The notes: generated by a model not told the origin, from the sequence alone. DNA of 64,000 nucleotides from Candidatus Bathyarchaeota archaeon (GCA_963714275.1 CAVQNT010000006.1:224001-288000); one strand, 5' to 3'. Positions 1,038 through 55,900 are shown, numbered from the stretch's first letter. Program-made: numbers and translations.

Positions 1038-2151
1038 ATGGAGACGAAGTTCATGGGAAAAATTAAAGTCGGTGTCGTAGGAGTCGGCAACTGCTTTGCC
1101 GGGTTAGTTCAGGGAATAGAGTATTATAAAAAGAACCGAACTAAAAAAAATGGTTTGATGCACGAGACCCTTGGTGGCTACGGGATTGAGGACATAGAAT
1201 TCACAAGCGCCTTTGATGTCGCAGTTGATAAGGTGGGCAAGCCACTGAGCGAGGCAATCTATGCGGACCCTAATTACGTTCGCTGGATAGACAGCGTCTC
1301 ATCATGCGGTAAAACGATGGTCAAGGAATCCCCTATTCTGGACGGCGTCGGAGTGTACGTTGTCAGCATGATTAATCCGCTGAAGCAAACCAAATCCGCT
1401 AAGGAACTGCGAAAAGTAGCCATGGACGAAATCGAGAATTCAGGCACGAAAGTTTTGCTTAACTATTTGCCTGTAGGAAGCCAAAAGGCAACCGAGTTCT
1501 GGGCGGACGTTTCTTTGGAGGCGGGATGCGCCTTCGTGAACTGTATCCCAGTTTTCATCGCTTCAAACGGAACTTGGGAGAAGAAATTCCGTGAAAAGAA
1601 GCTGCCAATAGTGGGGGACGACATTAAGGCTCAGATTGGTTCAACCATAACGCACAGAACCTTGACGAAGTCTCTGCTTGGACAGAGGCGCAGTTATAGA
1701 TAGAACGTACCAGATTAACGTGGGCGGCAACACAGACTTCGCTAACATGCTGGAAAGGGAAAGGCTGGCAAGCAAAAAAATATCGAAAACTGAAGCGGTC
1801 CGCAGCTTGATGCCTGACGATTCGAAGCTGCAAGATAAGGACATCTACATCGGTCCAAGCGACTTCATTCCATTCTTGGGAAACACTAAGTTGGCTTTCA
1901 TTAGGATAGAGGGAAGAATGTTTGCTAACATCCCCTTCAACATGGAACTGAGGCTGGAAGTGAACGACAAGGCAAACTCAGGCGGGGTATCTATCGATGC
2001 AATAAGGTGCGTACAGATAGCTCTAGACAAAGGAGTGGGCGGCAATCTAAAATACGCGTCAGCATACTTCATGAAGCACCCGCCAGTCCAAATAGCCGAC
2101 GAAGAAGCGAGAAGAAAACTGGACGAGTGGATTGTTGAAACTTCAAGTTAA
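1038..2151 (+). CDS. ino1: myo-inositol-1-phosphate synthase (one frameshift at ~1671, probably an assembly error)
   Basis: GVGNC...LVQG, NYLPVGS, GDDIKAQIGSTITHR, then YQINVGGNTDFANM, SKKISKT, YFMKHPP in the next frame; AAGTCTC repairs to AAG CTC. Confidence 0.92.
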
Positions 2152-2284
2152 AACTGTTTAATTCTCTTTTTTTGTACACAGCTGCAATTATTTGCCAATA
2201 CCGAATCAAATACAAGTGCGCGCGCTTAAGGCGAACTTTATTAAGAAAAGGTTGGATTTTAGTAATTGAAGCGGAGGACTCAAC

Positions 2285-5586: not shown

Positions 5587-6437
5587 GTGTTGCTACTCGC
5601 TTTTTTCATAGGTTTCTATCTAATGCATACAATGTCGGGGAACAGCAGCTTTTATGTATCATTTGAATTCAGTGACAGAAGTAGGAGATACATGGTTCAC
5701 ATCCCGCTGAGTTATAACGGGAACAATCTTACGCCATTAATTATTTCGCTGCATGGATATGGAGGAACCGCGAGAAGAAATGAAGAAGCGACGGGGTTCA
5801 CTGAGAAGTCGAATAGTGAAGGCTTCATTGTCGTCTATCCTGAGGGAATAGGGCAAAGCTGGAACGTACCATACTGTTGTGGCGAGGCTTACACAAACAA
5901 CATTGACGACATAGGCTTCATACGCAAACTCATAAGCAGGCTTGAACAAGAATACAAAATCGATCCAGATAGAATCTACGTGGCAGGATTCTCAAACGGT
6001 GCAATCATGGCGTACCGTCTGGCAGTCTGAACTCAGATAAAATTGCTGCTATTGCTCCAGTCGCAGGCTCAATCGGTGGTAAGTTCAACGGGAACGCTCC
6101 GCTTCAAAAAATCGCAGAGCCTTTGCATCCCGTAGCAGTGATAATCTTCCACGGTACGAATGAAACATCAGTATACTGCTATGGGGGTCTATCCTCCAAC
6201 GGGTTGCTTAGCCTTTCAGTCGCTGAGTCAGCAAACTTCTAGGTTAATCATGACAGATGCTCCGAAATCCCACAGACGGAGACAAGCCCTGACGGGAACA
6301 CAATAAAGGATGTCTACTCAGGCGGCAAAAACGGTGCAGAAGTCGTTTTATACACTCCTGTCGGCTTCGGTCACAATTGGCCAGCGACAGCTACTAACAT
6401 AATCTGGAATTTCTTCGTCAGCCACCCCAAACAATAA
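5587..6437 (+). pseudogene. PHB-depolymerase/LpqC-like secreted esterase, interrupted by a frameshift (~6026) and an in-frame TAG (6240-6242)
   Basis: N-terminal hydrophobic segment, LHGYGG, GFIVVYPEG, GFSNGA nucleophile elbow. Downstream frame: KIAAIAPVAG...IIFHGT...F*VNHDRC...GHNWP...IWNFFVSHPKQ. The lesions may be sequencing errors. Confidence 0.6.
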
Positions 6438-6710
6438 GGTGTCTGTGTATCAAAAACCTTGGTCCGACATGGGTCTGCATGAGCGTGAGAAACAACATCG
6501 AAGAAGGAAGCTAGAAATATCATCAGAATAATGAAAATGATAACCTTTATTAGCACCGTCCATCGTTTACTCATTAGCTTTCAGAAAAAGCGAAAATAAT
6601 CGACTTCCCATCGGGCTGGAAGGCCAACAGTCCGTTGGAGGAATAATCCTGAATAGTCCCATATGTAACCATTTAGTCGTTTCAAAACCTGAAAGGGGAA
6701 TTTTCATAAA

Positions 6711-9700
6711 TTGATTAATTCTGAAGATGCATATTTAGTACAGAAGGCCCTCTTAGAGGAGAAAGGGTTAGTTAGGCAACATCTTGATTCATACAACGAG
6801 TTCGTGGAACGCGGTCTTCAACAAGTAATAGACGAGGTCAGCGAAGTCGAAATCGAGGTTCCTGAAGGACCATACAAAATAAAGTTCGGCAGAATATTCA
6901 TCGTACGCGAAATCGAAAACGACGTCATTTACGGTCCCTACGTAACCGAGGTCGACGGCACTCGACACGAAATCTATCCCATGGAAACACGGCTGAGAAA
7001 CCTAGCATATTCAATGCCCCTCTCCGTCGAGATGACGCCGATAATTGACGACAAGGAAATGGAGAAAGAACTCGTTTACATCGGCGACCTGCCAACCATG
7101 CTTAAGTCGAAATACTGTCTTCTTTCAGAACTTTCCGAGGAAGAATTGATCAGACAAGGCGAAGACCCTCTTGACCCAGGCGGCTACTTCGTCGTAAACG
7201 GGTCAGAACGGGTCATCGTAGCCATTGAAGACTTGGCGCCAAACCGCATACTCGTGGACATTGACTCAAGAGGAGTAAACCCCGTTTATCAAGCAAAAGT
7301 ATTCTCCACTACCGTTGGGTTTAGAGCCAGAATAGAACTCAGACTGAAGTCAAACGGTTCACTCCACATTTCGGTGCCAGGTGTCCCGTCAGAAATACCA
7401 TTCATAATCATGATGAGAGCCTTGGGTTTACAGTCCGACCGAGAAATTGCAGAAGCGGTTTCTGCGGACAAGACCATTCAAAGCGAACTTGAACCGTCAT
7501 TTGAGATGGCGGCTGACGTCGGAACCGCTGAAGACGCCTTGCTGTTCATTGGCAACAGGGTAGCTCACGGTCAAGTTAAAAGCTACAGGCTCATGAAGAC
7601 GGAAACGATTGTTGACAGAAACTTTTTACCTCACGTCGGCAGAACGACTGACCAAAGAAAAGACAAAGCCTACTTCCTCGGCGAGATGGCTTCACGCGTA
7701 ATCGAGCTGAAGCTGGGAAGACGAAAACCCGACGACAAAGACCACTTTAAAAACAAGAGGCTGAAGCTCGCAGGACCACTTCTCGCAGACCTTTTCAGGG
7801 TGGCCTTCAGAAACCTGTGCCGCGATATAAAGTACCAGCTTGAAAGAATGGGACTGAAAAGACGCATGATCAGCGTCTCAATAGCCGTAAGACCAGGCAT
7901 AGTCTCAGACAAGACTTCAACACTCGTTGGCAACAGGGAACTGGGGCAGAGGACGAGTCGGAATCACACAGCTTCTCGACAGAACAAACATGATGTCAAC
8001 TCACAGCCACCTAAGAAGACTGCAGTCCCCGCTTAGCCGCAGCCAACCCAACTTCGAAGCCCGAGACCTTCATGCGACGCACTGGGGAAGGCTTTGCCCA
8101 AACGAGACACCTGAAGGAGCAAACTGCGGGCTCGTTAAGAATCTGGCTTTGTCAGCGTCTATTTCTGTGGGTTTAGACCTCGAAAAAGTCAAACAGATAC
8201 TTTACAGGAGAGGCGTTGTTCCCCTTACCGAAGCAAGCGAGACTATACGTACCACTGGAGCCAAAGTGTTTATTGACGGCTGCCCGATTGGGTACCACGA
8301 TTCTCCCAAGGAGTTCGTGACAGAGATGAAAGATGACCGAAGAAGAGGAGAACTCTCACCCGAAATTAACTTTGCATATTTTTCAAAAGCTCACGGCATG
8401 AATGAGGAAGCCTACATAAATTGTGACCAAGGCCGAGTTCGACGGGCACTTATAATCGTCGAAGACGGTGCACCAAAACTTGGGAACGAAGAAACAGAGA
8501 GAATCCGTTCAAAAGAATGGAATTGGGAAGACCTCATAAAACGAGGTATAATCGAGTACTTGGATGCTGAAGAAGAGGAAAACGCCCTAGTTGCATTGAA
8601 CCCGGACGAAATCGTACCCGGAACATACCACCCACCTCGAAATAACGTCTTACTCGATTCTTGGAACCTGCGCGTCGCTGATACCTTACGCTGAACATAA
8701 CCAGTCTCCACGCAACTCTTACGAGTCCGCCATGTCTAAGCAGGCTTTAGGCATTTACGCGGTGAACTACCCGTTAAGAGTTGACTCGCGGTCGCACATA
8801 CTTCACTATCCGCAAATCCCTGTAGTCCAAACTAAGCCATTAGACATCATTGGGTATAACCTTAGACCTTCCGGGCAGAACTGCGTGGTAGCAGTTCTTT
8901 CGTTCGAAGGCTACAACATGGAAGACGCCTTAATCTTCAACAAAGCATCCATCGAAAGAGGCATAGCCCGCTCATCCTTTTACAGAATCTACGACGCCGA
9001 ATGCCGCCAATATCTCGGAGGCCTAAGAGACCGCCTCGTAATTCCTGAGGCTGGAACCCGCGGATACCGTGGGGAACAGTATTACCGTTTCATCGAAGAA
9101 GACGGCGTGGTCAATGTCGAAGCTGAAGTCGCAGGAGGAGACGTCCTGATTGGCAGGATAAGCCCGCCACGTTTCCTCGAAGAATACAAGGAGTTCGAAA
9201 TTAAAGGACCCACCATGAGGGATTCTTCAGTTGACATGCGACCCTCCGAAAACGGTATTGTTGACGCATCGTTCATCACCGAAACCAACGAAGGAAGCAA
9301 ACTCGTGAAAGTTAGGGTACGCGACGAACGTATCCCGGAGTTGGAGACAAGTTTGCTTCACGCCACGGACAGAAAGGCGTCATAGGAATGATTGTTCCAC
9401 AAGAAAACATGCCCTTCAGCGTCGACGGAATTGTGCCGGACATCATGATTAATCCGCATGCGTTTCCGTCAAGGATGACGATTGGGCAGTTCCTAGAATC
9501 TCTCGCTGGGAAAGTAGCATCCGCCAAGGGAGAATTTATGGACGGAACCCCATTCATCAACAAGAAGGGCGACGAGCTCAAACAAATGCTTATCGACCTA
9601 GGTTTCAGTTACAGCGGCAGAGAAGTCCTGTACGACGGTGTCACAGGGCAAAAGTTCGTCACCGACATTTTCATGGGAGTCATCTATTACCAGAAGCTTC

Positions 9701-10081
9701 ACCACATGGTTGCTGACAAAATCCACGCTAGGGCAAGAGGTCAAGTCCAAATGCTTACGAGACAGCCGACGGAAGGAAGAGCCAGAGGCGGCGGATTACG
9801 TTTCGGCGAAATGGAAAGAGACTGCCTAATCGGTCATGGTGCAGCGATGTTGCTTCGTGACAGGCTACTTGAGGAATCAGATAAATACGTGCTTTACGTC
9901 TGCGAAAGTTGCGGACTCATCGCGTACTACGACATAAAACAGCGGAAATATGTTTGCCAGATTTGCGGAGAGCAATCCAGGGTTTCGCCTGTTCAGGTTT
10001 CATACGCGTTCAAACTTTTGTTGCAGGAGTCTAATGAGCTTGTGCGTAACTCCTCGGTTAAGGCTTAAGGAGAGGGCATAA
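6711..10081 (+). CDS. rpoB: DNA-directed RNA polymerase subunit B, single unsplit gene with 4 apparent frameshifts
   Basis: [89 protein letters not shown]; repaired C-terminus ...[17 protein letters not shown] ends at TAA 10079-10081. Confidence 0.97.
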
Positions 10082-10082
10082 A

Positions 10083-14221
<4,139 letters not shown>

Positions 14222-14229
<8 letters not shown>

Positions 14230-14659
14230 AGGCATAAAGTTCACTAACCGAGAAATGAGGTTCATCGCCCTATTCGAAAGCATAACAGGCGCGACGGTGA
14301 GAGACTGCATCGTAGATGAGGATTTCGATCGATTGATTTTCATAATCAAAGAGGGCGACGTCGGAATGGCTATCGGCAAGAGAGGAAAAAACATCTTGAT
14401 GCTCGAAAAAATGACGGGCAAAAAACACGAAATAATCGAGTTCTCAGAAGACCCATCGCAGTTCATCAAAAATGCCCTAAAGCCAGCTAAACTTAAAGAA
14501 ATACGCATCTCTGAGAGACCTGATGGCAAAACCATAGCTGTAGTGTCAGTTGATCCTCGAGACAAGGGAATAGCAATCGGCAAGAACGGCAAAAACGCTG
14601 AAAGAATCAGGTTTCTGGCGAAACGTTACTTCCAAATTAACAACGTTTCCATCATGTGA
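14222..14659 (+). CDS. nusA: Archaeal NusA (KH-domain transcription factor)
   Basis: FIALFESITGA, two AIGKxG KH motifs; canonical position. Confidence 0.95.
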
Positions 14660-14799
14660 CCCTCGCTCGATTAGACCGTAAACGTCTAAATTTACACAAG
14701 CTTAACAAAATGAAACAGAAACGTTTAAAACGATGAATCACGTTCGCAGTAATGAAAAACCGAGACAAAACAGGAATTTGAAACAGCAAAGGTGGAAGA

Positions 14800-15237: not shown

Positions 15238-15275
15238 AAAAATTTTGAACAAACAGTTTTTATTTTTTTAATCAT

Positions 15276-15749: not shown

Positions 15750-15933
15750 CTGAGGCTCACTTTGTAGAATAATTTTTATCTAGCCTAGTATAGACAATAC
15801 TTGTTATTGAATAAAACATTTGCCATACCAAGGTTCCGACAGCAAATCCGCACGAAAAAAGCTGCCGTGAATAGTTGCATTTTTCTCTCTTCAGCTATGA
15901 CCAGACACGATAGAAACAACATAAATATCAAAA

Positions 15934-17530
15934 ATGATTAATGAACGAAAACAGGAAAACAATGCAGGTGAAAAAGTGGCTTTAAAAGCGCCGTTTATGG
16001 GAACGTCGGGCGGAGTCTCGTCTGAACATCCACTAGCCTCCGTCGCTGGACAAAAGGTTCTGTTAGAAGGCGGCAATGCGTTTGACGCAGCAATCGCCAC
16101 AAGCCTCACGTTGTCTGTCACTCAGCCGCATCTCGGGTCTTTAGGTAGCGACTTATTCGCCTTACTCTATGAAGCTTCAAGCGGAAAAGTTCACTGCATC
16201 AACGCAAGCGGATGGGCTCCCAGAAAGTTGAGCCTGGAAACCTTACGAAGCGAAGGACGAAACAGCATACCAGCAGAGTCGCCTTATTCCGTCGTTGTAC
16301 CAGGCATGATTGACGGATTAAACAAAATCCAACAAAAATTCTGCACCTTTACGTTCAGAAGACTCGCTGAGGATTCTATCATTATTGCAGAGAAAGGATT
16401 TCCTGTTTCCTTCGGTCTTCATAAGGCAATACAACGCAACTCATCCAGATTGACGGAACCGTTAGCGAAAGACCTTTTTTATAAAGGCGGTAAACCGCTT
16501 ACATTAGGCGGATTGCTTGTTCAGAAATCATTAGCTGAAACCCTTAAGAGTGTAGCTTCTGACCCTCGCTTTTTCTATGAAGGACGGATACCTGAAAGAA
16601 TTTGTGAATATCTCGGAGCCAAAGGTGGCGTCCATGGTGTTGACGACTTCGCAGAGTACGAAGCTGAGTATGTTGAGCCCTTAAAAGTTGCTTACAGAGA
16701 TCTCGATGTCTACGAGGTGCCGCCGAACAGTCAAGGGGCAACGACTCTCATGCTCCTTAACATTCTCGAAAACTTCGACATTAACAAGCTGAGGAGCCTT
16801 TAATGATGGAAGGATTCACCTGTTCGTGGAGGCTGCTAAAAAAGCTTATGCGGACAAGAACCTTTACCTTGCTGACCCACGTTTCGTCAAGATACCGTTG
16901 GAAAAGATTCTCGCGAAAGGTCATGCTAAGGAGTTGGCAAGCAGCGTAAAATTTGATGGTATGTCCGATGGGGAGTCTCTGAAGCCTGGGGACACCACTA
17001 ACTTTATAGTTTTCGACAAGTGGGGAAACGTTGTTTCAGCCATCCAGAGCATCTATTACAGTTTCGGGTCAGCCCTTATGGAGCCGAAAACGGGCATCAT
17101 CCTCAATTGCAGGGGGACACACTTTACCCAGACGGGAGCGAACAAGCTTGAGCCGAGGAAGAGACCCTTACACACTCTGTCTTCAGTCATTGCCACGTCC
17201 AAAGAGGAAGAAGTGTTCGCATTTGGAGCCAGCGGCGGAGATTACAGGCCTCAACAGCACGTTTTGTTGTTAACGAACCTTGTTGACTACGGCATGAACT
17301 TGCAGGAAGCCGTTGACGCGCCAAGATTTCTTTGGAACGGAGGCAAACAGGTGATTGTTGAGGCAGGATTCAAGCGACTCCGCAGTTTGAATAAACTTGG
17401 ATTTGAGCTGGTTCGTCAAAAACATCCTGGCGGAACAGGCGTCGCTCACTGCGGTATGAGAAAAGGTAAGGTTACTGTGCTTTCTGCTGACGTAAGAGGA
17501 GACGGGATTCCCATGGGACCGAATACTTAA
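15934..17530 (+). CDS. ggt: Gamma-glutamyltransferase family protein (frameshift at ~16792)
   Basis: GGNAFDAAIA, VVVPG, YEVPPNSQG, GDTTNF (Thr nucleophile), FGSALM...GIILNCRG, PRKRPLHTL. Confidence 0.88.
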
Positions 17531-17611: not shown

Positions 17612-18176
17612 ATGCACATAGCAATTTGCGGAGAATTAGGCTCAGGATGCACCGAAGTAGGTCAGATACTTTCTGAAATGCTTGGAATAAAAGTCATTAA
17701 CTCAGCTACCGTCATAAAAAGTATAGTGACTGATTTTGGAGCCGTCAATCCCGGCGAGTCTTTTGGTGAATTTGAAAGGCACGTGCTTTCAGGCGAGGTG
17801 GATTTGGACAAGATGATTGCGGGCGAAATTGATGATTTTTTGGAACAGGGCGACACAATAGTGGAAGGTCGGTCAGCGTTTATGCTCCTAAGAAAACCCG
17901 GAGTCTTGAAGGTTCTTTTAGTTTCCCCGCTTGAAACAAGAGTTGAGCACATAGCGAAGAGACGAAAAATATTCATCGACGAAGCTTAAAGAGGCTATTC
18001 GGGTAAGCGACAGTGAAAGGCAACACATGGTTGACAAACTGTTTAAAAGCAACTGGCTTGACCCGCACAATTACGATTTAATTATCAACACTGGCTTAAG
18101 AAGCCATAAGGAAGCTGCAGAACAAATATACGATGACGTAAAAAAGAAAAAGGCTGCTTCTTCAAGTCCCTTGTAA
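17612..18176 (+). CDS. Cytidylate kinase-like protein (frameshift at ~17987)
   Basis: IAICGELGSGCTEVG P-loop variant, IVEGR, RVEHIAKR; repaired C-terminus ...WLDPHNYDLIINT... Confidence 0.75.
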
Positions 18177-18233: not shown

Positions 18234-18999
18234 ATGGTTTATTATGTAACTTATAGACCTCCGCTTGACCTAGAAATCCGTAGACAAGTAGAGGAACAAC
18301 TCAATACCTTGGGCGGCAGGCAGATACACGGGTCTTTCTGGGCAATCAGCAAACGGGACTTGTTGGCAGTTAGAACCGTCCTCCAGAAACTTTCACCTTT
18401 ACTTCTGAGAAGAACGCGCGAAATAAGGAAGCCGGACCTTGCGAACGGAAAAGAGCAGAAAGAACTTGGCAGCCTCATCATCATAGCATACAAAGCCACC
18501 AAAGACATGAAGAAGGAAAAAGTGAGAAACTGGCTTAGGAGAGCGCCATGTTTACGTTTAAGCCCCGGAGTGTATGCGTTTCCGCAGCGGCGGTTCTTTG
18601 ACAAGACTGGAAGGCTTGTGAATGCTGGCAGCTTCTGGGAGCTGAGTTCGACAGTTCGATGAAGACGCAGTCATAATTCCTCGGCTGGTCGTCGTTAACA
18701 CAAAGGCTGTTGACAGACTCATAGACGAAACTGGAAGGCGGGTCGTAAAGGAGACAATAAAAATCATTGAAGGATACAAAACTTTATTTAAAAAGGCAAT
18801 TCAAGACGACGTTAATAGGCAACATATGGTGGAAATTGCACGAAGGATCAGAAGAAGGTTCGTGACCTTAAAAAAAGTTGCCGCCATCTACGAGGAATGG
18901 CTGAAACTGGACCTTGGTTCAACGGTGATGAAGCCTTATCCTGCAATGAGGAAAGTCCGCTTAATGCTCGAAGAGAAATACGGCACACCCAGTTGGTGA
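18234..18999 (+). CDS. Hypothetical protein with two Cas2/ChrB-N/PaaX-like repeats and a helical C-terminus (frameshift at ~18644)
   Basis: ORF 18234-18662 continues in the next frame (VRQFDEDAVIIPRLVVVN...EEKYGTPSW) to TGA at 18997-18999. Confidence 0.55.
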
Positions 19000-19221: not shown

Positions 19222-20560
19222 ATGAAACATTATGACGTTGTCGTGATCGGTGCAGGAACCGGAGGGTGCATGACCGCTAAAACAGCTGCTTCAGCGGGAC
19301 TCAAGGTTTGCTTGGTTGACAGAAAAGACAGAAACTCGATTGGGCAAAAAGTCTGCGGCGATGCCGTTGGGAGACACCATTTTGACAACCTAGGCTTAGC
19401 GTATCCGGCTGGGCAAGAGAAGGAAGGCGACATTTCGGGAATAAACATTTTTTCTCCCGACCAACAAACAGCGTTCAGAATTACTGGAGAAGGGCTAACG
19501 GGATTCATGATTAACCGTTACCTTTTTGGACAGAGGCTTTTAAGATACGCCTTGGACGCGGGAGCTGAACTGTTCGATTCAACTCATGTTTTGGAGCCAA
19601 TCGTCGAAAAAGGATACGTTAAAGGCGTTGAGACGCGAAGCCTAAAAGACGAAACAAAAACCAAACTAACAGGCACGGTCACAGTAGACGCAAGCGGCGT
19701 ATCAGCCATTGTTCGAGGCAAGCTGCCACCAGAGGTTGGGTTAGAAAACAACGTCCAAAGCGAAGACATGATAGTCTGTTACAGGGAAATACGCAAAATA
19801 AAGAAGAAAGTCGAAGAACCCGACTATTGCGAGATTTTCTTGGACCTTGAGAAGGCGCCAGGCGGCTATTACTGGATTTTCCCAGAAGGCGAAACAAAAG
19901 TTAACGTTGGACTCGGAGTCGCTGCTCTGAAGGGGCATCCAAATCCCAAAGACAAACTATACAAGCATGTTCTCACGATGCCCATGTTTGAAGGCTCCAC
20001 GGTCACCCATGGCGGAGGAGGCATAGTCCCAACAAGGAGACCCCTCTATTCTCTCGTCGGAAACGGCGTAGTCCTCGTTGGCGACACGGGCTGCCAAGTC
20101 AACCCCATTCACGGCGGAGGAATCGGTCCCTCAATGATGGGCGGAAAAATCAGCTGCTGAAGTCATCACCGAAGTTCTAGAAAAAAGTCAGCCTACCTGC
20201 GAAGCTTTGTGGTTAGTTAACGTCCGTTTCATGAACGGCTACGGGAGCAAGCAGGCGGGGTTGGACGTTTTCCGTTTGTTCCTTCAGGGATTGTCCAACG
20301 ATGACCTGAATTACGGAATGAGGTACCGCCTAATCAAAGAAGAAGACGTTTTAAGGGCAAGCTTGGGCGAAGAAATCAAGTTGAACGTGACGGACACAAC
20401 TCGGCGAGTCTTCAATGGGCTGGGCAGGCTGTCATTCCTGAAGGCATTGTATAGTATGAAGAAGACAGTCAAGAGAGCAAAAACTCTATACAAAGAATAC
20501 CCAAGTTCACCCCAAGGACTACAAAAATGGAAAACACAAGCTGCGAAGATATTCGTATAA
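19222..20560 (+). CDS. Geranylgeranyl reductase family flavoprotein (frameshift at ~20151)
   Basis: YDVVVIGAGTGG, KVCGDA, PGGYYWIFP, VLVGDTGCQVNPIHGGGI. Confidence 0.88.
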
Positions 20561-20816: not shown

Positions 20817-21709
20817 TTGAGGGTCAGAAGAGCTTCAGCTTGGGGATTTCACCCTTTCGACCATGAAGGAGAACGAAGTGAGGTAGAACGGTGTTTCAAG
20901 TCGAAGCAAGGCGTCGGCGAGCTGCCCAAAGCTTCCATGCATGGAGAGAGACGAATAATCGGAGCCGTGGTCCCTCACGCGGGATTAACTTACTCAGGAC
21001 CGATTGCTGCACACACCTACTATGAACTGGGGAAGGACGGAACCCCAGAAACCTTCGTCATCGTTGGAGTAAACCACAGAGGCTACCCGGGCTTTAACAT
21101 TATGCTTGAGGGAGTATGGCGGATGCCCATGGGCGACGTAGAAGTGGACTCGGACCTTGCGAAAGAAATAGCCCGAAATTCAGGGTTCATGGACATCAAC
21201 CCGGACGCCCATGACGAGGAGCACTCCATCGAGGTTCACTGCCATTTCTCCAATACGTCTACGGCGGAAACTTCAAAATTGTCCCAATAACCGTGGGCTA
21301 TGGAGATTACGAAATGTGCAAAGACGTTGGCAACGCAATAGCAAAAGCGGTCAAGAACAAACAAAAAGACGTTGTCGTGATTGGAAGCACCGACTTCATT
21401 CATTACGGACCTAACTATGGTTACGCTCCTGTCGGAATGAAGCCTTTTGAGAAAGCACTGAAATGGATGAACGACGCGGACAAATCCATCATTGACACGA
21501 TACTAGCGCTTGACGCAGAGAAACTGGTCAACCTTGTCCAAGAAAAGGGCTACACGATGTGTGGTTCTCTTCCAGTCGCCACAATGATGGTCGCAACCAA
21601 GGAACTATGCGCAAAAGAAGCTAGGCTCCTCAAGTACGGAACAGACTACGACACAGGCGGAAGCACAGACCTCATCGTGGGATATGCATCCATCGTCATA
21701 TTAAAGTAA
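20817..21709 (+). CDS. MEMO1-family protein (AmmeMemoRadiSam protein B; frameshift at ~21239)
   Basis: VPHAGLTYSG, GVNH, EEHSIEVQLPFLQ after repair, STDFIHYG, TMCG, IVGYASI. Confidence 0.88.
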
Positions 21710-21733: not shown

Positions 21734-22943
21734 TCAGCAGACAGGCATTTTTCCCATGGCAAGGTCCATGCAGAATTTGTCTATGTTTTCAAGCTCGTAG
21801 TCGACGACTTTTTCGGCTTCCTTCCTAATCTTTTCAAAAGCTGCACGGTTATCTGGGATTAGCTGCACAGCCGCAACTGCGGGCTGGTCAATAGGTTGCC
21901 CTATTTTGCTCAACAACCAAACATAAACTTCCTTCACGCCTGGAACCTGCTGATGAACCTCGTTCGCCATCCGATGAGTCAAAAGATTATAGATTTTCCC
22001 CACATGACTAACAGGATTCTTCCCAGCCGCAGCCTCAGAACATTGAGGTCTGTTAAGCGAAATTAATCCATTTACTCTGTTTCCTCTTCCTACTTGTCCT
22101 GAGTCGACTCCGTCTGCGCTTGTACCGAGTACAGTTAAGTAGATTCCGTCTATGCCTCTGCCGGGAGTGTCTAAGGTGTTCAGCTGCACCTGTATCTTGG
22201 CAAAGTTATTGTTTTCTTTAACGAACTGAGTTATGCGTTCGAGAATTTCGCCTTTCTTCCCGAAATATTGTTTTTCGTCATCGATGAAACGGTCAACGAA
22301 AGCTATGGAGATTATCGAGCTCCAATTCATCGTCTTTCCGGAGACCCATCACCTTAACATCCTCCCCGGACTCAGGAAACCTCTTCTTAAACTCTTTTGA
22401 GTTCACGTAATTCTCCGTTTTAAATACAGCCATCTCCGTCTTAGTCAGTGGTGCCCATCCTACAGCCGCCGAAGTATCATTCGCTTCGAGGACCTTTCCG
22501 CCTCTTCTGAAAATGTCTGTGAGCGCAGATGAACCGGGCCGAATCTCCACCTGATAAACCACGTGCTTGCTGGGGTCCACGAACCTCAGGTTTTTCTTAA
22601 GCCAGTCTTTCGCTGTCTGAACCGCGATTTCTTCAACGGGGATTTCGTCTCCGTCCACTTTATAGGTTGCTCTGTCTCCGAAAATCAGCTTCATCGGCTT
22701 CTTCATTACGCCACCTTTGAACCGTGTTTCAACCTCTCCAGCTACCAAGAGAGACTTGTCTATGTTGTGATGCAGTATGGTTCCCGCTTTTTTGAGGTAT
22801 TCTTTGCTCAGGCTGACTGAAACCTCGTTCATTATGCTGTCGCACATTGTGTCTGGGTGTCCGAGTCCCTTTCGCTCAACCACCTCAATCCTCTGATTTT
22901 GTAACGGGACCTGTTTTAAAGCTGCAACGATTATGTTCCTCAT
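21734..22943 (-). CDS. mat: Archaeal S-adenosylmethionine synthetase (frameshift at ~22318)
   Basis: EVVERKGLGHPDTMCD, ANDTS, GEDVKVMG, YLTVLGTSA, GRGNRVNGLI, AAGKNPVSHVGKIYN. Confidence 0.93.
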
Positions 22944-33049: not shown

Positions 33050-34016
33050 AATTCTTTAACGCAGCGACCATGTTTCTCAGCTTACTCAACGATATTCGGT
33101 AAGCTTCCTCCGTATCCATGTTATTCCGTAGTAGTTTTCTAAATCCGCAGTCTGGAGTAAAAATTAAGGCTTCTTTATGCCCATTGAACTGTTTCATAAA
33201 ATTAAGGATTTCTTTTGGGCTTTCTATTCTTGGATTTTTTGTTGACAAGCAGCCGACGGACAATACTTTTTCGTTTTCTCGAAGTTTTTCTGGCGAGTAT
33301 AATGTTATGTTTTGCGGGGTGTCGAAAAATTCGTGGCTAATGAAGTCAAGTTCGGTTCTTAACAGAATTTCTGCTAGTTGGGGGAGATTCTTCCGCAGAT
33401 GTGGGAACCCACAATCCTTTCTCCGCAAGCCTTCTTGAGACTATTGTACACGCCGATTATGTCTTCATCTCGGTATCCGAAAGTCTGTTCTGGCTCCCAC
33501 CAACACGCTCAGGATGGGTTCGTCGATAGATATCATGCTGGCGTTTTCAGAGGCTGCTTCGCAGCTTTCGGAAAGGATTCCAGCGATCTGGTTAACCAAG
33601 TTAAAATCTGAAACAGCGGTGTTGTAGGGAAACATGCCCGGTTTTGTTTCAATGAATGAAGCGAGAGTAAACGGTCCTGTTATGGGGGCTTTCAATCTGA
33701 CGTTGTTTGTTAATCCTTTTTCGTCCAGATATTTTGTTGCCCAAAAAAAGGGTTCTAAACCCAACGGAGGACCATTGTATTCGATTATTTTTCCGCTGAT
33801 TCTATAACGGTTTTTTTCCTGCTGGACTCCGCTGCCATGTTTAGTTAGGTCGTTTAGGAATTGTGGACCCATTTCTGATAGCTGGGGGTAAGATGGATAA
33901 TCTAAACCAACCGCTAGGAGGTCGTTTATGCACCTTTTTCTATTGGCTTCAGTGTCTTCGAGCGTGAAACTACCAATAGTTGACGTGAAAATTCCAGATA
34001 TTTGCAGCTCAGCCAC
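33033..34016 (-). CDS. Single-barrel (core) cobalamin-independent methionine synthase-like protein (2 frameshifts)
   Basis: TIGSF, ITGPFTL, ISIDEP, repaired GSHICG (HxC), HEF, TPDCG...KLRNMV zinc-ligand pattern. Confidence 0.75.
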
Positions 34017-34773: not shown

Positions 34774-35710
34774 TTAGAATTGCTGAATACATGAATTAAG
34801 CTTTGATGCTGAATCGGTCTTTTTTGACATGTCGACTATGAGATAAGCACCCCTGCTATTGTTGTATGGCGGTCCCTTTCTCGAAAAAATTGTTAAAATT
34901 TTGCTATTATGGTTGAACTTGTAGCCTTCGTCAACTGGTTCATGACCCCTAACTAAAAATTCTGCTTTAACCATTTTGAGGAAAGCGTCTGTCACGTCTT
35001 CGCCGAAAAGGCGTCCTGCGCCGCGGGGCGAAAAAAGTGTTCCTATGATACCTTCAGTCTGGGTCGCTCCACAATATTTCTTCCAAGTGGGTTTCAGCTG
35101 GATGCTTCTGATACGCGTAAGCAACGTCGTCAAGCGTTTTTGCCTTACTTGGGACTCCACCGTGCAACATTACGAAATTGTCCTCTACGAGAACCGCTGT
35201 GTAGAAACGTCTAAAAAGCGCACTGAGCTCCGTGTAAACCACTTGCCAATCAGAACCAAATTTCCTCTGCAAATGAAAAGGCAAATCGTGAGGGTCAGCC
35301 AAAAGGTCTTGTGGTCCTTCATGATTTCCCTGAAGCAAAATAACGTTTTCTGGGAACATCATTTTCAGACTCAAGACGACATAGTAGACTTCAGGCGAAA
35401 AGGGTCCTCGGTCACCATAATCTCCAAGAAAAACGAGGTATACTTGCATTCCGCTTTTGGATTTTTCATGAAAATTCGTTTTGTTTAAAATCTCATTGAG
35501 GCTGTTTATGTCGCCATGTAGGTCTCCAATGACGATTGCTTCCCCTTCTGGAGAAAGATGTATGAGCCTTCCCGTAATTCGCATCCTAGCATTACTTTTT
35601 TCTACAGAGAGTATCTGGACAACTTGGTTAACTGCTTTCATGAAAGATTTGCTGTCAACATTGGATGCTTCGTTGAATAGACCTGTAAGAGTTCCCATCT
35701 GAACCTTCAA
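34774..35710 (-). CDS. PPP-family Ser/Thr protein phosphatase (frameshift at ~35058)
   Basis: GDLHG, GDYGDRG, GNHE, HGG, LWSDP, SPRG, RGHE, TIFS motifs. Confidence 0.9.
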
Positions 35711-35775: not shown

Positions 35776-36842
35776 ATGGTGAAGGAATTGCCTCAAATAC
35801 TGAAGGCGAGTTTCGAAGAAACTCTTGAAAAACATGTATTGCCTTCATTATGCATAGGGTGTGCCACTTGTGTCGCAGTGTGCCCCTTTAACTGCCTAGA
35901 GTATGTAAATGAAAAACCTATTTTGGTAAGAGAATGCAGGTCATGCGGCATTTGTGCACAAGTTTGTCCCCGATATCATTTGTCTGTTCCCGAGTTAGAA
36001 CGTTTCGTGTTTGGCAGGGAAAGAAGGGACGATGAGGAATTCGGCATCTTTCGCCGTGCGGTTATTGCACAAACCGCTGACCAAAAAATAAAAAAAGTTT
36101 GCCAGGACGGCGGGGTCGTCACAACGCTTTTGGTATACGCCTTAAATGAGGGACTCATTGATGGCGCGGTTCTTTCAGGCGTAAGCGAGACTGAGCCGTT
36201 GAAGGCGGCTCCGAAACTAGCCACTACCATGAAAGAAATTGTGGATTGTGCTGGAACAAGGTACACTTATTCACCGAGTATGCTTGCTTTAAAAGAAGGC
36301 ATACTACAAAAAAAGAAAAGCCTGGCGTTCGTTGGAACACCTGACCAGATACAAGCGTTTAGGAGGATTCAAGCCCTTCCCTTAAAGAAATACTCCGAAG
36401 CCGTTGCCTTCACGGTTGGCGTCTTCTGCAGCGAATGCTTCACCTATGAAGGACTGGTTAATCAGTTGATGCGAAAAGAGCTGGGAATCGATGCAGCAGA
36501 AGTGGAAAAAATCAACATCAAGGGCAAACTTCTCGTCACAACCAAGTCAGGCAAGGTTAAGGAAATCCGCCTAAAAGAAGCAAAAAAACACGTCAGAAAC
36601 TGCATTACACAATGCTCAGACTTTTCCGCCGAATTGGCTGACATATCAGTGGGAGGATTAGGATTGGAAGGCTGGACCTTCACCATTCTGAGGACAGAGA
36701 AAGGCTTAGACCTCTTTCAGGAAGTCTGAAACCAAAGGCTTAATCCGAACAAGAAAAGTCTGAGGAAGAAAACCAAGTTCTGGACCTATTGGTCAAGTTA
36801 TCAAAGAAAAAACGTGAAAATGCTGTAAATGTAAACCTGTGA
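35776..36842 (+). CDS. Coenzyme F420 hydrogenase/dehydrogenase beta-subunit (FrhB/FpoF family) with 2x[4Fe-4S]; C-terminal frameshifts
   Basis: CIGCATCVAVCP, CRSCGICAQVCP, QDGGVVTTLL, AGTRY, GVFC, CSDFSAELADISVG. Confidence 0.88.
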
Positions 36843-41940: not shown

Positions 41941-42911
41941 TTAAGCAACGACCTTTGCGAGTAAAGCCTTAGCTGTGTGTAGTCGGTTTTCAGCTTGGTC
42001 CCAGACTACTGAATAAGAACCGTCCATGACTTCGTCTGTGACTTCTTCGTTGCGGTGTGCTGGCAGGCAATGCATGAACAAAGCGTCTTTTGAGGCATGT
42101 TTGAAAAGGTCTGAGGTCACTTTGTATTTTGGAAGGAACGTTTTTAGTCTTGTTTCGCGTTCAGCTTCGTCGCCCATTGAAACAAAGGTGTCCGTGTAAA
42201 TAACATCCGCATTCTTAACGAGCTTCTGATGGTTCACGGAGTATTTCGACTTTTGAGATGCTGTCTTGTGCGTTTGTTTTAGCCATAATTTGCACACTAT
42301 TATAAGGTTCGTAGCCTTGTGGGCATGCGACCGAAACGTTGACGCCTAGTTTGGAGCATCCGATAAGCAGAGAGTTGCACACGTTGTTTCCATCTCCTAC
42401 ATAGGCAACCTTTAAACCTTCCAAGGATCCAAATTTCTCCCAGACGGTGTAAAGGTCTGCGACAGACTTGGCATGGATGATGCAAATCTGACAGGGCATT
42501 GATTACCGGGATGTCTGCGTACTCAGCTATCTCCTCGAGGTCTTCATGATTATTGACCCTAGCCACCACGCAATCCACATATCGGCTTAAGACACGGGCA
42601 GTGTCCGCGGTTGACTCTCCTCGTCCCAGCTGTGACTCAGCCCACCCAAGGTAAATGGAGTGTCCGCCGAGCTGGTGGATTGCGACCTCAAAAGAGATTC
42701 GTGTACGGGTTGAAGGTTTCTGGAAAAGAAGTGCGATTGATTTGCCTTCGAGATTGTTTGCTTCTTTACCTTTAATGGTTTTCTCCTTAAATTTTTTCGT
42801 AGACTTCAATAGTTGCCATATTTCGTCTTTAGTGAACTCCTGTAACGTGAGGAAATTTTGTTTCTTCATTTTCGTCATTACCTTCTTTTTTTGTGGTTTT
42901 GATATGCTCAT
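41941..42911 (-). CDS. argF: Ornithine carbamoyltransferase (2 frameshifts)
   Basis: STRTRISFE, HPCQ(A)VADL, GDGNNV, YTDTFVSMG, FMHCLPAHR, QAENRLH. Confidence 0.95.
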
Positions 42912-45768: not shown

Positions 45769-48700
45769 ATGCCTTTCATAAAGAAGATCGAGGTTAACGG
45801 CTTCAAAACGTTTGGCAGAAAGACGACTCTGATGTTTGAAAAGGGATTCACAGCGATAACTGGACCGAACGGAAGCGGGAAAACCAACATTATCGACGCG
45901 GTTCTGTTTTGTTTAGGTGAGCTCAGCTCAAGAAGGCTCCGGGCGGAAAACTTTTCGAAACTCATTTTTCACGGAGGCATAGACCCAGATGTTAGAAAGA
46001 AGGGTAACGCTAAAGTCGTCATCCAGTTTGACAACACAGACAGTCGGTTGCCAACAGACACCTCTACGGTTACGCTTTCTCGGGAGATCGACGAAGATGG
46101 CCAAAGTGTCTTCAGAATCAACGGTCGCAGAGTCTCCAGAGCCTACGCTATAGAAATCCTTTCAATAGCGGGCATCAGCCCCTATGGATATAATGTTGTC
46201 CTCCAAGGAACACTTACAAGACTGGCAGAAATTTCGCCCCAAGAACGCAGGAAAATAATCGAAGACATGATAGGAATCGCCACCTATGACACAGAAAAGG
46301 AGGAAGCGGAAAAGAAGCTGCAGACAGCGGATATTTCAATAAAGACCGCGATGGGGCAAGTAAGCGAAGTCCAGAACAGGATAGAGGCTCTTGAAAAAGA
46401 AAGAAACGACCTGCTTCGTCACAATTTTATCCAAAAAGAAATTAGACGTTTTGCTGCAGTCAAAATTTCTTACGAAATTAGGAGCACCCAAGAAAAAATC
46501 GACGAACTGGAAAAGCAGATCGGTAGCCTAGAAAAAAAGATTGAAGAAATTAGAACCCAAAGAGAAAACCTCCGTTCGAAGCGTCACGAAATCGAGGCTG
46601 AATGGAGAAGACTCGGCTTCGAAGAGGTTGAGGAAAACCAAACGAGGGTTCTACAGATTCAGATAGAAATAGGGGAACTACGGTCAAGACTCGTTGAGTC
46701 TTTCGACAAAACTGACAGCAAACAAATCCAGCGTAGACGGTCTCATCAGAATAAAAGACAACTCCACACAGCAAATAGAAACCTTGAAAAATGAGATTGA
46801 TGGAGTCAAGAATAGTGTCAAGCAGCTCACGCCAGTTCAGGATTCACTGAGTAAAGAAATCGCGGAGAACCAGTCAGTTTATGACGCAGTCAACGAAGAA
46901 ACCATGAAAGCCAGAGCAAACGTAAACGAAATAACTAAAAAAATACGGGAAGCCGAAGTCCAGCTGGAACAACTACACCAAGAGACAATAAATCTTCGCA
47001 GCCAACGGGCAGAAACAGAGTCCAAAATTAACGTTTATTCGGAAAGGCTGAGGAACCTTAAAGAAAGAAAAAACGACCTTGGCAACGCATCGAACAGGCT
47101 CGAAGAGTCCCTTAAAAGAGCTTGAAAACATACACAAGGAAAGAACAGAACGGTTAAAATTTCTGCAGGAGTCTCTTCAGAAAAAGGCTGAAAGAAAAGG
47201 AGTCTTGGAAACCGAAATCAAAGAGGCAGGAAAAATCGCTGACATAGCCAGGGAAGCTCTGGTCGAGTTTGAGACCCGCAAAGACCTCGTGGGTAAGTTC
47301 ACAACCGAAGAAAACGCATTGAAACAAGTCGAGGAACTGGGTCAACTCGGCGTCATCAATGGCATTGACGGTCGCCTCAAAAACCTCATAAACGTCCGAA
47401 AAGGGTACGAACGCGCAGTGGAAGCTGCAGCTGCAGGATGGCTGAATGCGCTTGTTGTCGAAAATTTAGAAACAGCCTTCACGTGCGTCGAAACTTTACG
47501 GCAGCTTAAGCTGAGGAAGGATCAAAATTGTTCCGCTTCAAGGTTTGTCGCCAGCCAAATTGGTCAGCTTACCACAAATTAAGGGTGTAGGTGACAAGGT
47601 CCTATCCTTCGTGTCATACGGCGAGAAATATGTTTCAGCAGTAACATTTGTCCTAGGTGATACTTATCTAGCAGCTGACGAAAAAGCAGCGCTTGTTGCT
47701 TCGCACGTTGGCTTCCGTTCAGTCACGAAGACTGGTGACCTTTTTGAACTGGGGGCGGAGTTGAAAGCGGATTCTACAGGGCGCCCATTGATTTCTCTTC
47801 TTTCGTGCCAAGCGAGTCAGCACTTAAGAATCTTGACAAAGCCATAACCGTGTTGAAGGAGAACCTGACGAAAAGGGAAACCGACATCGGCGAACTGGAA
47901 AAGGAGATTGCGGACATTCAACAGGAGATTACATCTTACGCGGAGGCTTTAGGCAATCTCGAAGCTGAGACGGAAAGGACACGAAAAAGCATACATGACA
48001 CGAAAGCCAACATCGAACGCGCTGAGAAGAACATATCTAGTCTACAAAGTTACCTTGAGGAAGAAAGGGCGCATATTAAATCTTACGACGATGCCAATGA
48101 GGATTTGACAGCTAGAGAGAAGAGTTTGCGTGAAGAGCGGGAAAATCTCAGGAAGAACGTTGACCTTTCAGCAACGCAAGAAAGAGAACAGAAACGAGAA
48201 GCTTTAGGAACCGAGACTATTGAGCTAAGACAGAAACTCGGTAAAGTGGAGACTGAGCTCTCAGTATTGCAGTCAAAATTGGACAATGTGTTGAATACTG
48301 GGTTGGAGAATGCTCACGTTCAGCAAGAAAAGGCGTTGAACCAGATATCCACGTTGGAACGTGAAATTAACGAATCCAACAAAGAGAAAGAGGTGGTTCA
48401 AAACAAAATCAAGGAGCTTGAAGCAAACAAGGAGAAGCTCTCTAGCACTCTGTTGAATGCAAAGGGCGAAGCGAAGAAGTACACTTCACAGATCGACGAG
48501 ATAGATGGCAAACTCCGAGTTCTGGAAGGAGAATATGAACAGGCTGACATCCTGCTTGACGAGTTAAGGCTTAACCTTCAAACCCTTCGTCTTCAGATCG
48601 GGAGATATCTTGAGCAGCTCAAAATTTTAGGCTACGAAGAACCCTTGCCAGTTACATCAGGCAACATTCAAGACGTTGAGACGTCGCTTAAGATGATGAG

Positions 48701-52666: not shown

Positions 52667-52944
52667 CTGAATGTCTTTTTTAAAGTTTCGTTTCCATCAA
52701 TATTGTTGTGTGTTTCTTCCGTATTTCTAAGTAACAAATTTTTTGTTACAAGTTTTGGCTAGTGTATCCCAAAAAAGACATTAGCCAGATTGTTCATAAT
52801 TTTCGTAAACCATAAGAATTAAATACTATGTAATTAGAAAAAAACATCTACGAATATAGTAAATGAAGATCATAACGATAAAAATATATTCAAATCCAAC
52901 GTAAAAGGACACTTTAATGAACGGGAAGCTGGTTGCGGTAAAGT

Positions 52945-55900
52945 TTGGAGATAAAAATTCGAGGCGCAAGCGAACACAACCTGAAAGACGTAGACATCGA
53001 CATCGGCGACGGATTGACCGTTGTGACGGGAGTTTCAGGTTCAGGAAAAACCTCGCTCGTGTTCGACACCTTATACCATGAGGCTAGACGCCGATTCCTC
53101 GAAGTCTTCTCCAAAGGCAACTTCGCCTCGAAACTGTCGCCAGCCAACGTGCAATCCATAAATGGCATGGGACCAGCGGTCGCGGTGGGACAAAATCTCC
53201 TTAACCGTAACCCATTCTCGACTTTGGCCACAGCTTCAGGGCTGCACCCGTTCTTCAGGTTGCTTTACGCTAGATTCGGGACGCAGTACTGCCCACGTTG
53301 CGACGCTGAAATCTCTATCTTGTCTGAAGATGAGACTGTTGAACGACTATTGTCCATGGCTAAGCAGGAACAAGTCACGGTTTACGCACCTTTGGTTCGT
53401 GGTGCAAAAGGAAGCCACCGTACGCTGCTCAAGCTTCTCGCAGACCAATTCGGGAACGAGGTTCTATTTGTGGACGGGGAAAAGTGGCAGGAACAGACTC
53501 TTGATCCAAGAGAGCCTCATGGCATCGATGTAGAAGTCGGAGAGGTTAATGGTGAAACTTCTGCACAGATTGTTCGGCAAATCGTCCAGAAGGTTGCTGC
53601 ACTTGGGGGAAATGTAGTAAGAGCTCATTCAGCCAGTGCCGAGGTTACGCTTTCACGGGTTTTAACTTGCTATAAATGTGGAGAATGGTTTTCCGTCCTT
53701 GAACCTGTGCATTTCCACACGCCTTGCCCGCACTGCAAAGGGAAGGGATGTCAGCATTGCGGACAAACTGGGCTGCACCCGAGGGCTGCTTCCATCCGTT
53801 GGAAAGGACTGCGGTTGCCTGAACTTCTAGATTTATCGGTCGATGAAGCGTACAATCTTTTTGCTTGTTCGGAACTGCCTTCGTCTGCCTCAAGGTTAAT
53901 GTCCGAAATATCGCGTAGACTCGACGCATTGTTGACTGTGGGTTTAGGGTATGTCCAGCTCGACAGACCATCTCCGACGTTGTCGCGAGGAGAGTCGCAA
54001 AGGGTACGGCTTGCGGTTTCCTTAACCAGCCAGTTGGAGGACATCATCCATGTTCTTGACGAGCCGACCATCGGTCAACATCCAGCGGACATTGTCAGAT
54101 TACTTCCAGCCTTCAGAAAGCTTCACGGACCCGTCATCTACGTTGAGCACGACAGAGTCGCAGCTGCACTGCTGATACAACCATCGACATCGGTCCCGGA
54201 GCTGGAAATGAAGGTGGCCAAATCGTTTTTACGGGAACCCCATTGGAGCTTTGGAAGGCAGACACGGCGACGGGGCGATACTTCAGTTTCAGAGACAATG
54301 TACCTGTGCCTAAAGCACGTTCCGAACCTGAAATGTTTATCGTCATTCGTGGAGCAAGTGAACATAACCTGCAAAACATTGACGCCCCGATTCCTGTTGG
54401 CAGACTCACAGTTATAACTGGGGTTTCTGGTTCTGGAAAAAGCACGTTTGTTGAGGAAGTATTGGTTCCATCGCTTAAGAACCAGAAGCCGGTGGGTTGT
54501 GTCGCTGTTGATGGTCCCAAGTTAAAACCTGTGTTGGTGGACCAAAGCCCTATTGGGAGGAATCCGCGGTCCAATCCTGCCACTTATACTAAGCTTTCTA
54601 ATGTCATCAGAGACTTATTCGCCAATGCAACAGGGCTTTCAGCTTCCCATTTCTCATTCAACCGTCCTGAAGGAGCGTGCCGAAGATGCAAAGGCATAGG
54701 AGCCATAGAGGTCAGGATGAGGTTTTTACCCTCAACGTGGATTCCGTGTTCTGAATGCGAAGGCCAACGGTTCACAGACAAGGTACTGTCAGCTGGCGTC
54801 AGGTTTGAAAACGCTGAGTTGTCAATTGCGGATTTTTACAAGCCTGTCGATTTCCCAAGTCGACTCTCTGTTAAGGAAGGACCGAAGACTTTCAATAGCG
54901 GAGCACAGGACTGCTGTCCGAGTCCTTGACGCATTAGAAACGGTTGGGCTAGGATACCTGAGACTAGGACAGCCTTCTCCCACGCTTTCTGGTGGAGAGG
55001 CGCAACGTGTCAAGATGGTAAAGTTTCTCGGCAGGGGAATGCTTGCGGATCGGGTGCTTGTTCTTGATGAGCCTTCGACTGGGTTGCATCCTAAGGACCT
55101 TTCAGGTTTACTTAAGGTTCTTGACCGTCTTGTCCGAACTGGAGCCACCATTGTGGTTGTTGAACACAACACCGATGTAATTCGTGCGGCAGACTGGATT
55201 ATCGATTTGGGTCCCGGAGCTGGACCGAAGGGAGGAAAAGTCATCTACGCGGGACCACCAGCCGAGCTGCCACAAGTTAATAATTCTATTACTGGCCAAT
55301 TCTTGAAACAAGAAGCATCCATTTACCCTAATGCTGGTGAACAAAAAATTAAGTTTGCTGCTTCAAGGTGTATTTCTATCAGGAACGCTCAAGCAAACAA
55401 CCTCAAGAACGTAGACATTGATTTCCCTAAAGATGCATTCACGGTTGTGACAGGCGTTTCAGGTTCAGGCAAGTCCAGTCTTATTCGCGACATTCTTGAA
55501 GCGGAAGCGAAACGAAGGTTTCTGGAAACCCTTTCCATGTACGAAAGGCAGGGAACTCACGAAGGACCAGAGGCTCTCGTTGACTCTGTCGCTGGACTGG
55601 GCGTCTCAGTTTTCGTTTCATCAAGCAGCGGACCTTACGGGCGCCGGTCAACTGTTGGAACAATTTCAGAAATCTTGCATCACTTGGCTATCTTGTTGGC
55701 TACGGTTGGCGAAAGGGTCTGCCTGAATTGTGGAGTCACGATGAAACGCAACGAAGAATGGGATTGCCCCGCTGCCATAGTAAAGCTCCTATAGCAAAAC
55801 CTCGTCACTTCTTTTCTTCCACCTATGCTGCTGCCTGCCAAAAATGTCACGGTGTAGGAACAGTTCAGGTTCCTGTTCCAGAAAAACTCATCATCCACCC

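Follow-up and report, generated by a model that had tools for sequence, protein, structure and literature searches.

Frameshifts clustered at AGCT in a Bathyarchaeia genome: consensus errors at a probably modified motif, and a candidate orphan methyltransferase

Why does one stretch of an archaeal genome carry broken reading frames in rpoB, rpoA', smc, uvrA and other genes, and why do so many of the breaks fall at the word AGCT? The stretch in question, called the window here, comprises 64,000 nucleotides (224001 to 288000 of contig CAVQNT010000006.1; G000:C6:224001-288000) from the genome of an uncultured archaeon of the Bathyarchaeia (GCA_963714275.1, here G000; 2.64 Mb in 10 contigs, ~43% G+C, 91% complete). 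A sequence-only reading of the window had listed 27 frameshift positions, had ascribed them to base-calling errors at a methylated or otherwise modified AGCT, and had taken the affected genes to be intact in the living cell. Here, we compare the window with a close relative and with independent public contigs. We put at roughly 82% the probability that the frameshifts are consensus artefacts caused by a modification of AGCT, and we point to a gene on another contig that may encode the modifying enzyme.

The window was aligned by blastn to the covering contigs of a relative, G002, whose DNA is 84 to 93% identical to it over most of its length. This alignment contains 123 indels in total. A filter for isolated events (1-bp indels only, flanks at least 75% identical) retains 46, intergenic ones included, and 27 of these are linked to AGCT; four more AGCT-linked sites (6026, 36725, 36760 and 18644) lie outside the 46, by reason of the isolation filter or an alignment edge. 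Within the window alone, AGCT is the top 4-mer for indels, with 24 of 308 sites hit as against 1.2% overall. Adding 20 further stretches of G002 brought the aligned length to 333 kb, of which 299 kb lies inside long G002 reading frames. In this coding part, we counted isolated 1-bp indels within 2 nt of each canonical 4-mer, and found them at 88 of 1,573 AGCT sites (5.6%), compared with 1,443 of 299,154 4-mer positions overall (0.48%). The excess is 11.6-fold (Fisher p about 1e-62) and ranks first among all canonical 4-mers. The runners-up, GCTA, CAGC, GAGC and AAGC, all overlap AGCT, and no other independent 4-mer stands out. The association of indels with AGCT is therefore far beyond chance, and the clustering that had been noticed by hand in the window is borne out on a larger scale.

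Other palindromes behave differently. Across the whole 333 kb, 119 of 1,709 AGCT sites (7.0%) have an indel, against 0.7 to 1.0% for TCGA, GTAC, GCGC, CCGG, CGCG, GGCC and ACGT, and 1.6-2.5% for GATC, CATG and TGCA. In the coding tally, the rates of other G- or C-containing palindromes range from 0.1 to 1.0%, apart from CTAG (1.8%), a word that may overlap with AGCT. Indels affect every one of the ten NAGCTN flank classes, at rates of 4.4 to 18.8%, so that the word is simply AGCT. A reference-free test over the genome, in which a 1-base edit joins two long frames, ranks AGACT second and AGTCT fourth among 5-mers, with a 2.1 to 2.3-fold enrichment; ordinary gene junctions swamp this signal, which explains its small size and makes it weak support. 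The isolated coding indels number 185, of which 102 have AGCT within 5 nt in either genome, or about 119 when edits that restore AGCT are counted. By a script tally with rough class borders, one of the largest classes is an extra base between the G and the C of the word (T in 22 cases, A in 17, C in 5). In 24 cases, plus about 25 borderline ones, the extra base adjoins an AGCT that is intact; a base is lost inside AGCT in 18, and beside it in 7.

Independent data speak directly to whether these indels exist in the organism. Parts of positions 6001-16000 of the window were found in 20 public runs, and the best four of these, X1 to X4 (sediment and wetland metagenomes from four studies), were compared with the window over 6001-26000. 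At all 12 indel places displayed (7914, 8617, 9340, 10030, 11187, 12831, 14660, 16791, 17986, 18644, 20151 and 21238), ten of them linked to AGCT, the window is corrected by contigs of two to four runs each, and at ten of the 12 the full covering depth carries the correction. The contigs of X2, 0.7 to 1.45 kb long, show 0 to 3 letter differences from the window and exactly one gap each, and so represent a nearly identical population that lacks the frameshifts. One 1,122-bp contig is identical to the window save for the indel at 7914, in rpoB. In six relatives, the 10-kb rpo region is unbroken: rpoB appears as one match of 1,128 residues in five of them, and the locus of the sixth begins beyond rpoB and has intact flanking genes. 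The same error signature was sought in the rpo region of these six relatives and not found, so that region offers no second error-bearing genome. The indels are artefacts, not mutations; the sequence-only reading had turned on their absence from other data, and in the four runs they are gone at every displayed place.

Single-letter differences between runs and window are also seen in this comparison. Two of the 16 displayed, at 7999 and 8121, restore AGCT, which is suggestive, but in too small a sample to carry weight. At 6562, 6629, 7094 and 8839, three or four runs have G where the window has A, and at 8169 they have C where it has G. The alternative letters at these five positions create a CG dinucleotide, in CCG or ACG context. 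Such differences could reflect strain variation, a nanopore A/G bias, or a second error-prone context.

The indel sites are listed below in window coordinates, with letters as read on the plus strand. Each is a difference from G002 unless stated otherwise, and fractions give the covering runs whose contigs omit the extra base or supply the missing one. Sites marked as additional are those that the earlier list did not contain.

1669..1673, extra T within AGCT (AGTCT), inositol-3-phosphate synthase gene; G002 has AAG-CTCT
6024..6028, extra T within AGCT; G002 has CAG-CTG
7912..7916, extra A within AGCT (AGACT), rpoB; base omitted in contigs of 4/4 runs
8615..8618, extra base away from AGCT, rpoB; omitted in 4/4 runs
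9339..9342, AGCT lacking its C, rpoB; G002 has GAGCTC, and contigs of 4/4 runs supply the C
10028..10032, extra T within AGCT, rpoB; 4/4 runs
11185..11189, extra A within AGCT, at the junction of two open reading frames on the same strand, directly upstream of the C-terminal piece of RpoA'; 4/4 runs
12830..12833, AGCT lacking its C, rpoA'; 3/3 covering runs
14659..14661, extra C in a run of C, away from AGCT; 2/2 covering runs
16787..16792, extra G right after an intact AGCT, gamma-glutamyltransferase gene; 3/3 covering runs
17983..17987, extra T at the end of AGCT, (d)CMP kinase gene; also seen against run contigs
18640..18645, extra base beside AGCT; omitted in 3/3 covering runs, outside the G002 alignment
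20150..20155, extra C right before AGCT, digeranylgeranylglycerophospholipid reductase gene; also seen against run contigs
21237..21241, AGCT lacking its G, MEMO1-family gene; G002 has CAGCTG, and contigs of 3 runs supply the G
22315..22322, extra C two bases ahead of GAGCT, methionine adenosyltransferase gene
23495..23500, extra C right before AGCT
24118..24122, 1-bp deletion, NAD synthase gene; G002 has AGACT, which leaves the link to AGCT unsupported
25027..25031, AGCT lacking its G; G002 has GAGCTT; additional
33376..33380, AGCT lacking its C
33482..33486, extra T within AGCT
35056..35060, extra T within AGCT
36723..36727, extra T within AGCT, F420-hydrogenase beta-like gene
36757..36761, AGTCT in the window and AGTT in G002; dropping one base gives AGCT
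42218..42225, extra base beside AGCT, ornithine carbamoyltransferase gene
42464..42470, AGACT in the window and AGCCT in G002, ornithine carbamoyltransferase gene
46697..46701, extra T within AGCT, smc
47116..47123, extra A two bases ahead of GAGCT, smc; additional
47509..47515, extra base right after AGCT, smc
47747..47751, AGCT lacking its G, smc
54167..54171, AGCT lacking its G, uvrA
54841..54845, extra C within AGCT (AGCCT), uvrA
55769..55773, AGCT lacking its A, uvrA; additional
59902..59909, C missing two bases ahead of AGCT; additional

All 27 positions listed in the sequence-only reading correspond, to within 3 nt, to 1-bp indels, 26 of them in the alignment with G002 and one, 18644, through the run contigs. 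At 26 of the 27, an AGCT in G002 or in the window coincides with or adjoins the indel, or removal of the extra base restores one; the link fails at 24119/24120, where the relative has AGACT. Some of the inserted bases had been labelled on the opposite strand: 33484 and 35058 read AGTCT, and 42466 reads AGACT, on the plus strand. These are reverse complements of the earlier labels, and the interpretation is unchanged. RpoB, RpoA', SMC, ornithine carbamoyltransferase, methionine adenosyltransferase and NAD synthase had been named as broken, and all of them are, as are UvrA and others; rpoB alone holds four breaks relative to G002. The AGCT-linked sites that had been missed are 25029, 47117, 55771 and 59904. 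Frameshift indels unrelated to AGCT also occur in the window, in homopolymers at 14660, 15971, 17573 and 31163 and outside homopolymers at 8616, 26610, 26851 and 30788. As a separate feature, a stretch of about 150 bp at 34500-34660 has matches, 70 to 93% identical, at dozens of positions spread over many contigs of G002, and thus represents a dispersed intergenic repeat.

How might AGCT come to attract such errors? We propose that the cytosine of AGCT is modified on both strands in this archaeon, probably to N4-methylcytosine (m4C), and that the altered signal leads the base-caller or polisher to count one base too many or too few in or beside a minority of the AGCT sites. The errors seen take several forms: gain of T or A, less often C, between the G and the C; deletion of the C or the G at the center of the word; and a base gained or dropped next to an AGCT that is itself intact. 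In vivo, rpoB, rpoA', smc, nadE, uvrA, the genes for ornithine carbamoyltransferase and methionine adenosyltransferase, and others would then be intact, and the writer would be an orphan PF01555 methyltransferase encoded on another contig (C5:127528-128244). The reads are probably nanopore reads, judging from the error profile and from the assembly of 2.64 Mb in 10 contigs.

Consensus error at a methylation motif is an already known kind of artefact; what is specific here is the word AGCT, the predominance of indels, and the candidate enzyme. Excerpts of published work describe nanopore consensus errors that cluster in organism-specific methylation motifs; before models were trained on matching taxa, Dcm sites accounted for ~70% of such consensus errors (PMC6591954). 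Modification-induced errors persist with newer nanopore chemistry, mainly as substitutions, according to excerpts of a later study (PMC11610603). As with the Dcm (CCWGG) errors of Enterobacteriaceae outlined in these excerpts (PMC6591954, PMC11610603), the errors seen here fall on one short palindrome and are absent from independent data, the host has a methyltransferase of a matching lineage, and homopolymer errors form a second class. The present case differs from that one in its word, in that most errors are 1-bp indels, in its uncultured Bathyarchaeia host, and in that platform and modification are inferred.

Several points weigh against our explanation. The errors are mainly indels, as opposed to the substitutions that are mainly reported for current nanopore chemistry. 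About 36% of the isolated coding indels lie away from AGCT, and comprise homopolymer and miscellaneous errors. GATC is at background in the coding tally (2/415), despite the presence of a Dam-type gene in the genome. In the comparison with X1-X4, sixteen further indel rows lie outside the displayed set, and the correction has partial depth at two places (21.5 of 32.3 at 9340 in X4, and 14.6 of 30.7 at 21238 in X1). One of the four runs may be the source sample of the window itself, and their short-read nature is judged from contig sizes, since the library type is unrecorded. Both the platform and the modification of AGCT, moreover, are inferred.

It is conceivable that the base-caller or polisher is simply weak at AGCT k-mers, whether or not these are modified. 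In line with this, no more than 5.6 to 7% of AGCT sites are affected, a sign that the wider context matters, and homopolymer-type errors are present too, and indicate a consensus that is generally imperfect. However, a generic weakness at AGCT would appear in all assemblies from the platform. Motif errors of this sort are tied to organism-specific methylation and vanish with taxon-trained models, according to excerpts of PMC6591954, and the genome at hand has a methylase of a lineage that matches the published AGCT-m4C organisms. We consider a modification-independent weakness improbable. Far less credible still is the idea that the frameshifts are real, either as pseudogenes or as programmed recoding or editing at AGCT. 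The frames are indeed broken in the deposited sequence, and at a reproducible word, but four breaks in rpoB, together with those in rpoA', smc and other genes, would be non-viable; the indels are missing from nearly identical contigs of four other runs; and the mixture of insertions, deletions and flanking changes is unlike a recoding signal. Artefacts caused by modification of AGCT thus remain the explanation that we favor.

Which enzyme might write the mark? The sequence-only reading had placed it outside the window, and PF01555 matches are indeed found elsewhere: on contigs C2 and C5, and near 139 kb and 356 kb of C6. The genome carries three intact PF01555 genes and one Dam-type gene. One of the three, at C5:127528-128244, encodes a protein of 239 residues with the motif IV sequence DPPF and a PF01555 (N6_N4 methyltransferase) domain at residues 31-227 (E 1e-34). 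It is flanked by a transaldolase (PF00923) gene on one side and a gene with a CDC48_N domain on the other. No nuclease is found among the neighbors, one of which, of 155 residues, has no Pfam match. Searches for motif specificity through solved structures, NCBIfam, PADLOC and the ESM Atlas returned only the generic description "type II methyltransferase", with no motif.

The distribution of this gene is more telling. It is present in 6/6 genomes of the same genus and 15/18 of the same family, is absent from 10/12 genomes of the other families of the order, and falls in identity with relatedness (89, 84, then 67 to 79%). In a 401-genome sample of the phylum, it occurs in 9/9 genomes of its own family (f1) and in 50/61 of a second family (f21), with strays in f11 (1/2), f17 (1/1), f33 (1/27) and one further genome. 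The f21 genomes are largely 1.1 to 1.9 Mb in size, many of them single-contig and few larger, and amoA is found in 5/5 tested, which marks them as ammonia-oxidising archaea of the Nitrosopumilus type. In five of five f21 genomes tested (1.2-1.6 Mb, amoA-bearing), the orthologue is the sole full-length PF01555 gene. The f21 proteins are 42 to 47% identical to the Bathyarchaeia protein over 190-210 residues in the search, and 40-42% identical over 209 residues by blastp. Homologues are also found in 58/111 genomes of the order to which a Methanoregulaceae metagenome-assembled genome (MAG) belongs (Methanomicrobiales), with 47% identity to the Methanoregulaceae protein. The blocks DPPF, SGSMxxxSGWNNL, NHxIWxYQFGVxTK and TSHYH are common to all aligned homologues.

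This distribution parallels what has been published for archaeal methylomes. Excerpts of a survey (PMC10609329) describe two persistent orphan methylases in Nitrosopumilales, one making N6-methyladenine (m6A) at GATC throughout Nitrososphaerota and one making m4C at AGCT, specific to Nitrosopumilales and found in 14/14. They also describe persistent AGCT m4C orphans, alongside GATC m6A, in Methanoculleus and in the Methanoregula/Methanospirillum group. One Nitrosopumilales MAG has exactly two methylases, matched to AGCT m4C and GATC m6A, in excerpts of PMC6329791. Named archaeal AGCT enzymes in the available excerpts include M.Mma5219II, M.Nca01I, M.NspBD3I and M.MhuIV (PMC11033074, PMC6329791). 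The archaeal AGCT-m4C orphans excerpted from the survey (HG11, HG16 and HG19; PMC10609329) and the Bathyarchaeia enzyme are alike in having PF01555, no nuclease neighbor, and vertical conservation within the family.

The other enzyme of the published pair can be followed too. A Dam-type PF02086 gene is present in 61/61 f21 genomes, and it lies within about 300 bp of amoA in five of five examined (G031, G116, G209, G227 and G245). PF02086 also occurs in two genomes of another family, of 2.7 to 2.8 Mb, both of which lack the DPPF gene, as would be expected if PF02086 were the phylum-wide GATC enzyme and the DPPF gene the AGCT enzyme of particular families. Unlike the ammonia oxidisers, family f1 keeps no Dam-type partner (0/9), and the Dam-type gene of G000 lies in a variable region.

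We assign the AGCT mark to the enzyme at C5:127528-128244 with moderate confidence. By the classical rule for motif IV, DPPF belongs to N6-adenine enzymes, and SPPY or SPPF to N4-cytosine enzymes. Two considerations count against the assignment: DPPF is atypical for an N4-cytosine enzyme by this rule, although the homologues of ammonia oxidisers and Methanoregulaceae have the same motif, and the link between gene and word is drawn from matching distributions. With regard to chemistry, the sequence-only reading had allowed for either 5-methylcytosine (m5C) or m4C. Of the two, m4C is favored, because a probable homologue of the AGCT-m4C lineage is present. An AluI-type m5C methyltransferase would have the same recognition word, AGCT, and is disfavored: PF00145 has no match in this 91%-complete genome, and the same profile, as a control, matched 9/14 genomes.

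Could another enzyme of the genome modify AGCT instead? Two further PF01555 genes, both intact, lie on C2. The first (C2:149557-150387, 277 residues) has the motif SPPY, typical of N4-cytosine methylases and to that extent a point against our choice, and is followed by an HNH nuclease gene, so that the two would form an AluI-like restriction-modification system. The HNH partner is a protein of 195 residues with winged-helix and HNH domains, and the genes form a compact pair. This arrangement is kept in four relative loci (G002, G004, G003 and G006), whereas three other orthologue loci lack the HNH gene; the methylase gene itself is found in 4/6 genomes of the genus. The second gene (C2:292379-293428, 350 residues) has the motif HPPY and lies beside the Dam-type PF02086 gene. 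Both are sporadic, occurring in 37/401 and 76/401 phylum genomes, and in just 5/61 and 0/61 of the ammonia-oxidiser family, for which AGCT m4C is published as universal. Members of the SPPY family that are 63 to 77% identical turn up in a wide variety of bacterial and archaeal phyla, with >571 matches in the genome collection, a spread that would be expected of a mobile restriction-modification module. Moreover, the genome does not avoid AGCT (observed/expected 0.95), whereas GGCC is strongly depleted (0.34); CCGG (0.65) and GATC (0.66) are low as well. Nor does any other motif show errors that would give the C2 enzymes a target. Taken together, we regard either C2 enzyme as an unlikely writer of the mark, and prefer the one on C5.

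The remaining methylase genes can be described briefly. At C2:291517-293428, the PF02086 and HPPY PF01555 methylase genes stand side by side, next to a gene with a ParB-N domain; with the Dam-type gene in 0/9 other genomes of the family, this locus looks like a mobile or variable module. On C6, a DPPF PF01555 methylase (356353-357199) and a PF02384 methylase (358739-359704) are each split into several frames; these too may have been broken by the consensus errors, as opposed to being dead genes. One more PF01555 match is a tRNA-methylase-like gene, and type I and type IIG-like PF02384 genes are also present.

In the literature searches made, no printed account of a modified AGCT in Bathyarchaeia came to light, though supplementary tables may hold motif lists. 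The excerpts of the archaeal methylome survey (PMC10609329) contain no mention of Bathyarchaeia, and those of two Bathyarchaeia papers (PMC13340088, PMC11529989) contain nothing on AGCT.

Finally, what would these errors mean for the organism and its family? If 185 isolated coding indels in 299 kb are extrapolated, the genome holds roughly 1,400 false frameshifts, with AGCT as the site of about two thirds. This would leave a large share of genes mis-annotated as pseudogenes or split genes, and completeness estimates, pangenome counts and inferences of gene loss for this species representative would be affected. A polish with short reads, or one that is aware of the motif, would repair most of the errors. 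At the same time, the error footprint discloses, at no extra cost, a probable methylation motif of a lineage that is uncultured and lies outside the archaeal survey, and it points to one testable gene. The distribution of that gene adds a third archaeal group to the pattern of AGCT orphan methylases known from ammonia oxidisers and Methanomicrobiales. We tentatively suggest, at a little under even odds, that one family of Bathyarchaeia marks AGCT throughout its genomes with a vertically inherited orphan methyltransferase, of a lineage that is fixed among the ammonia oxidisers of Nitrosopumilaceae and frequent in Methanomicrobiales, and whose DPPF motif would break the classical rule. The mark would then be a conserved housekeeping mark, common to distant archaeal phyla, and not one of defence.

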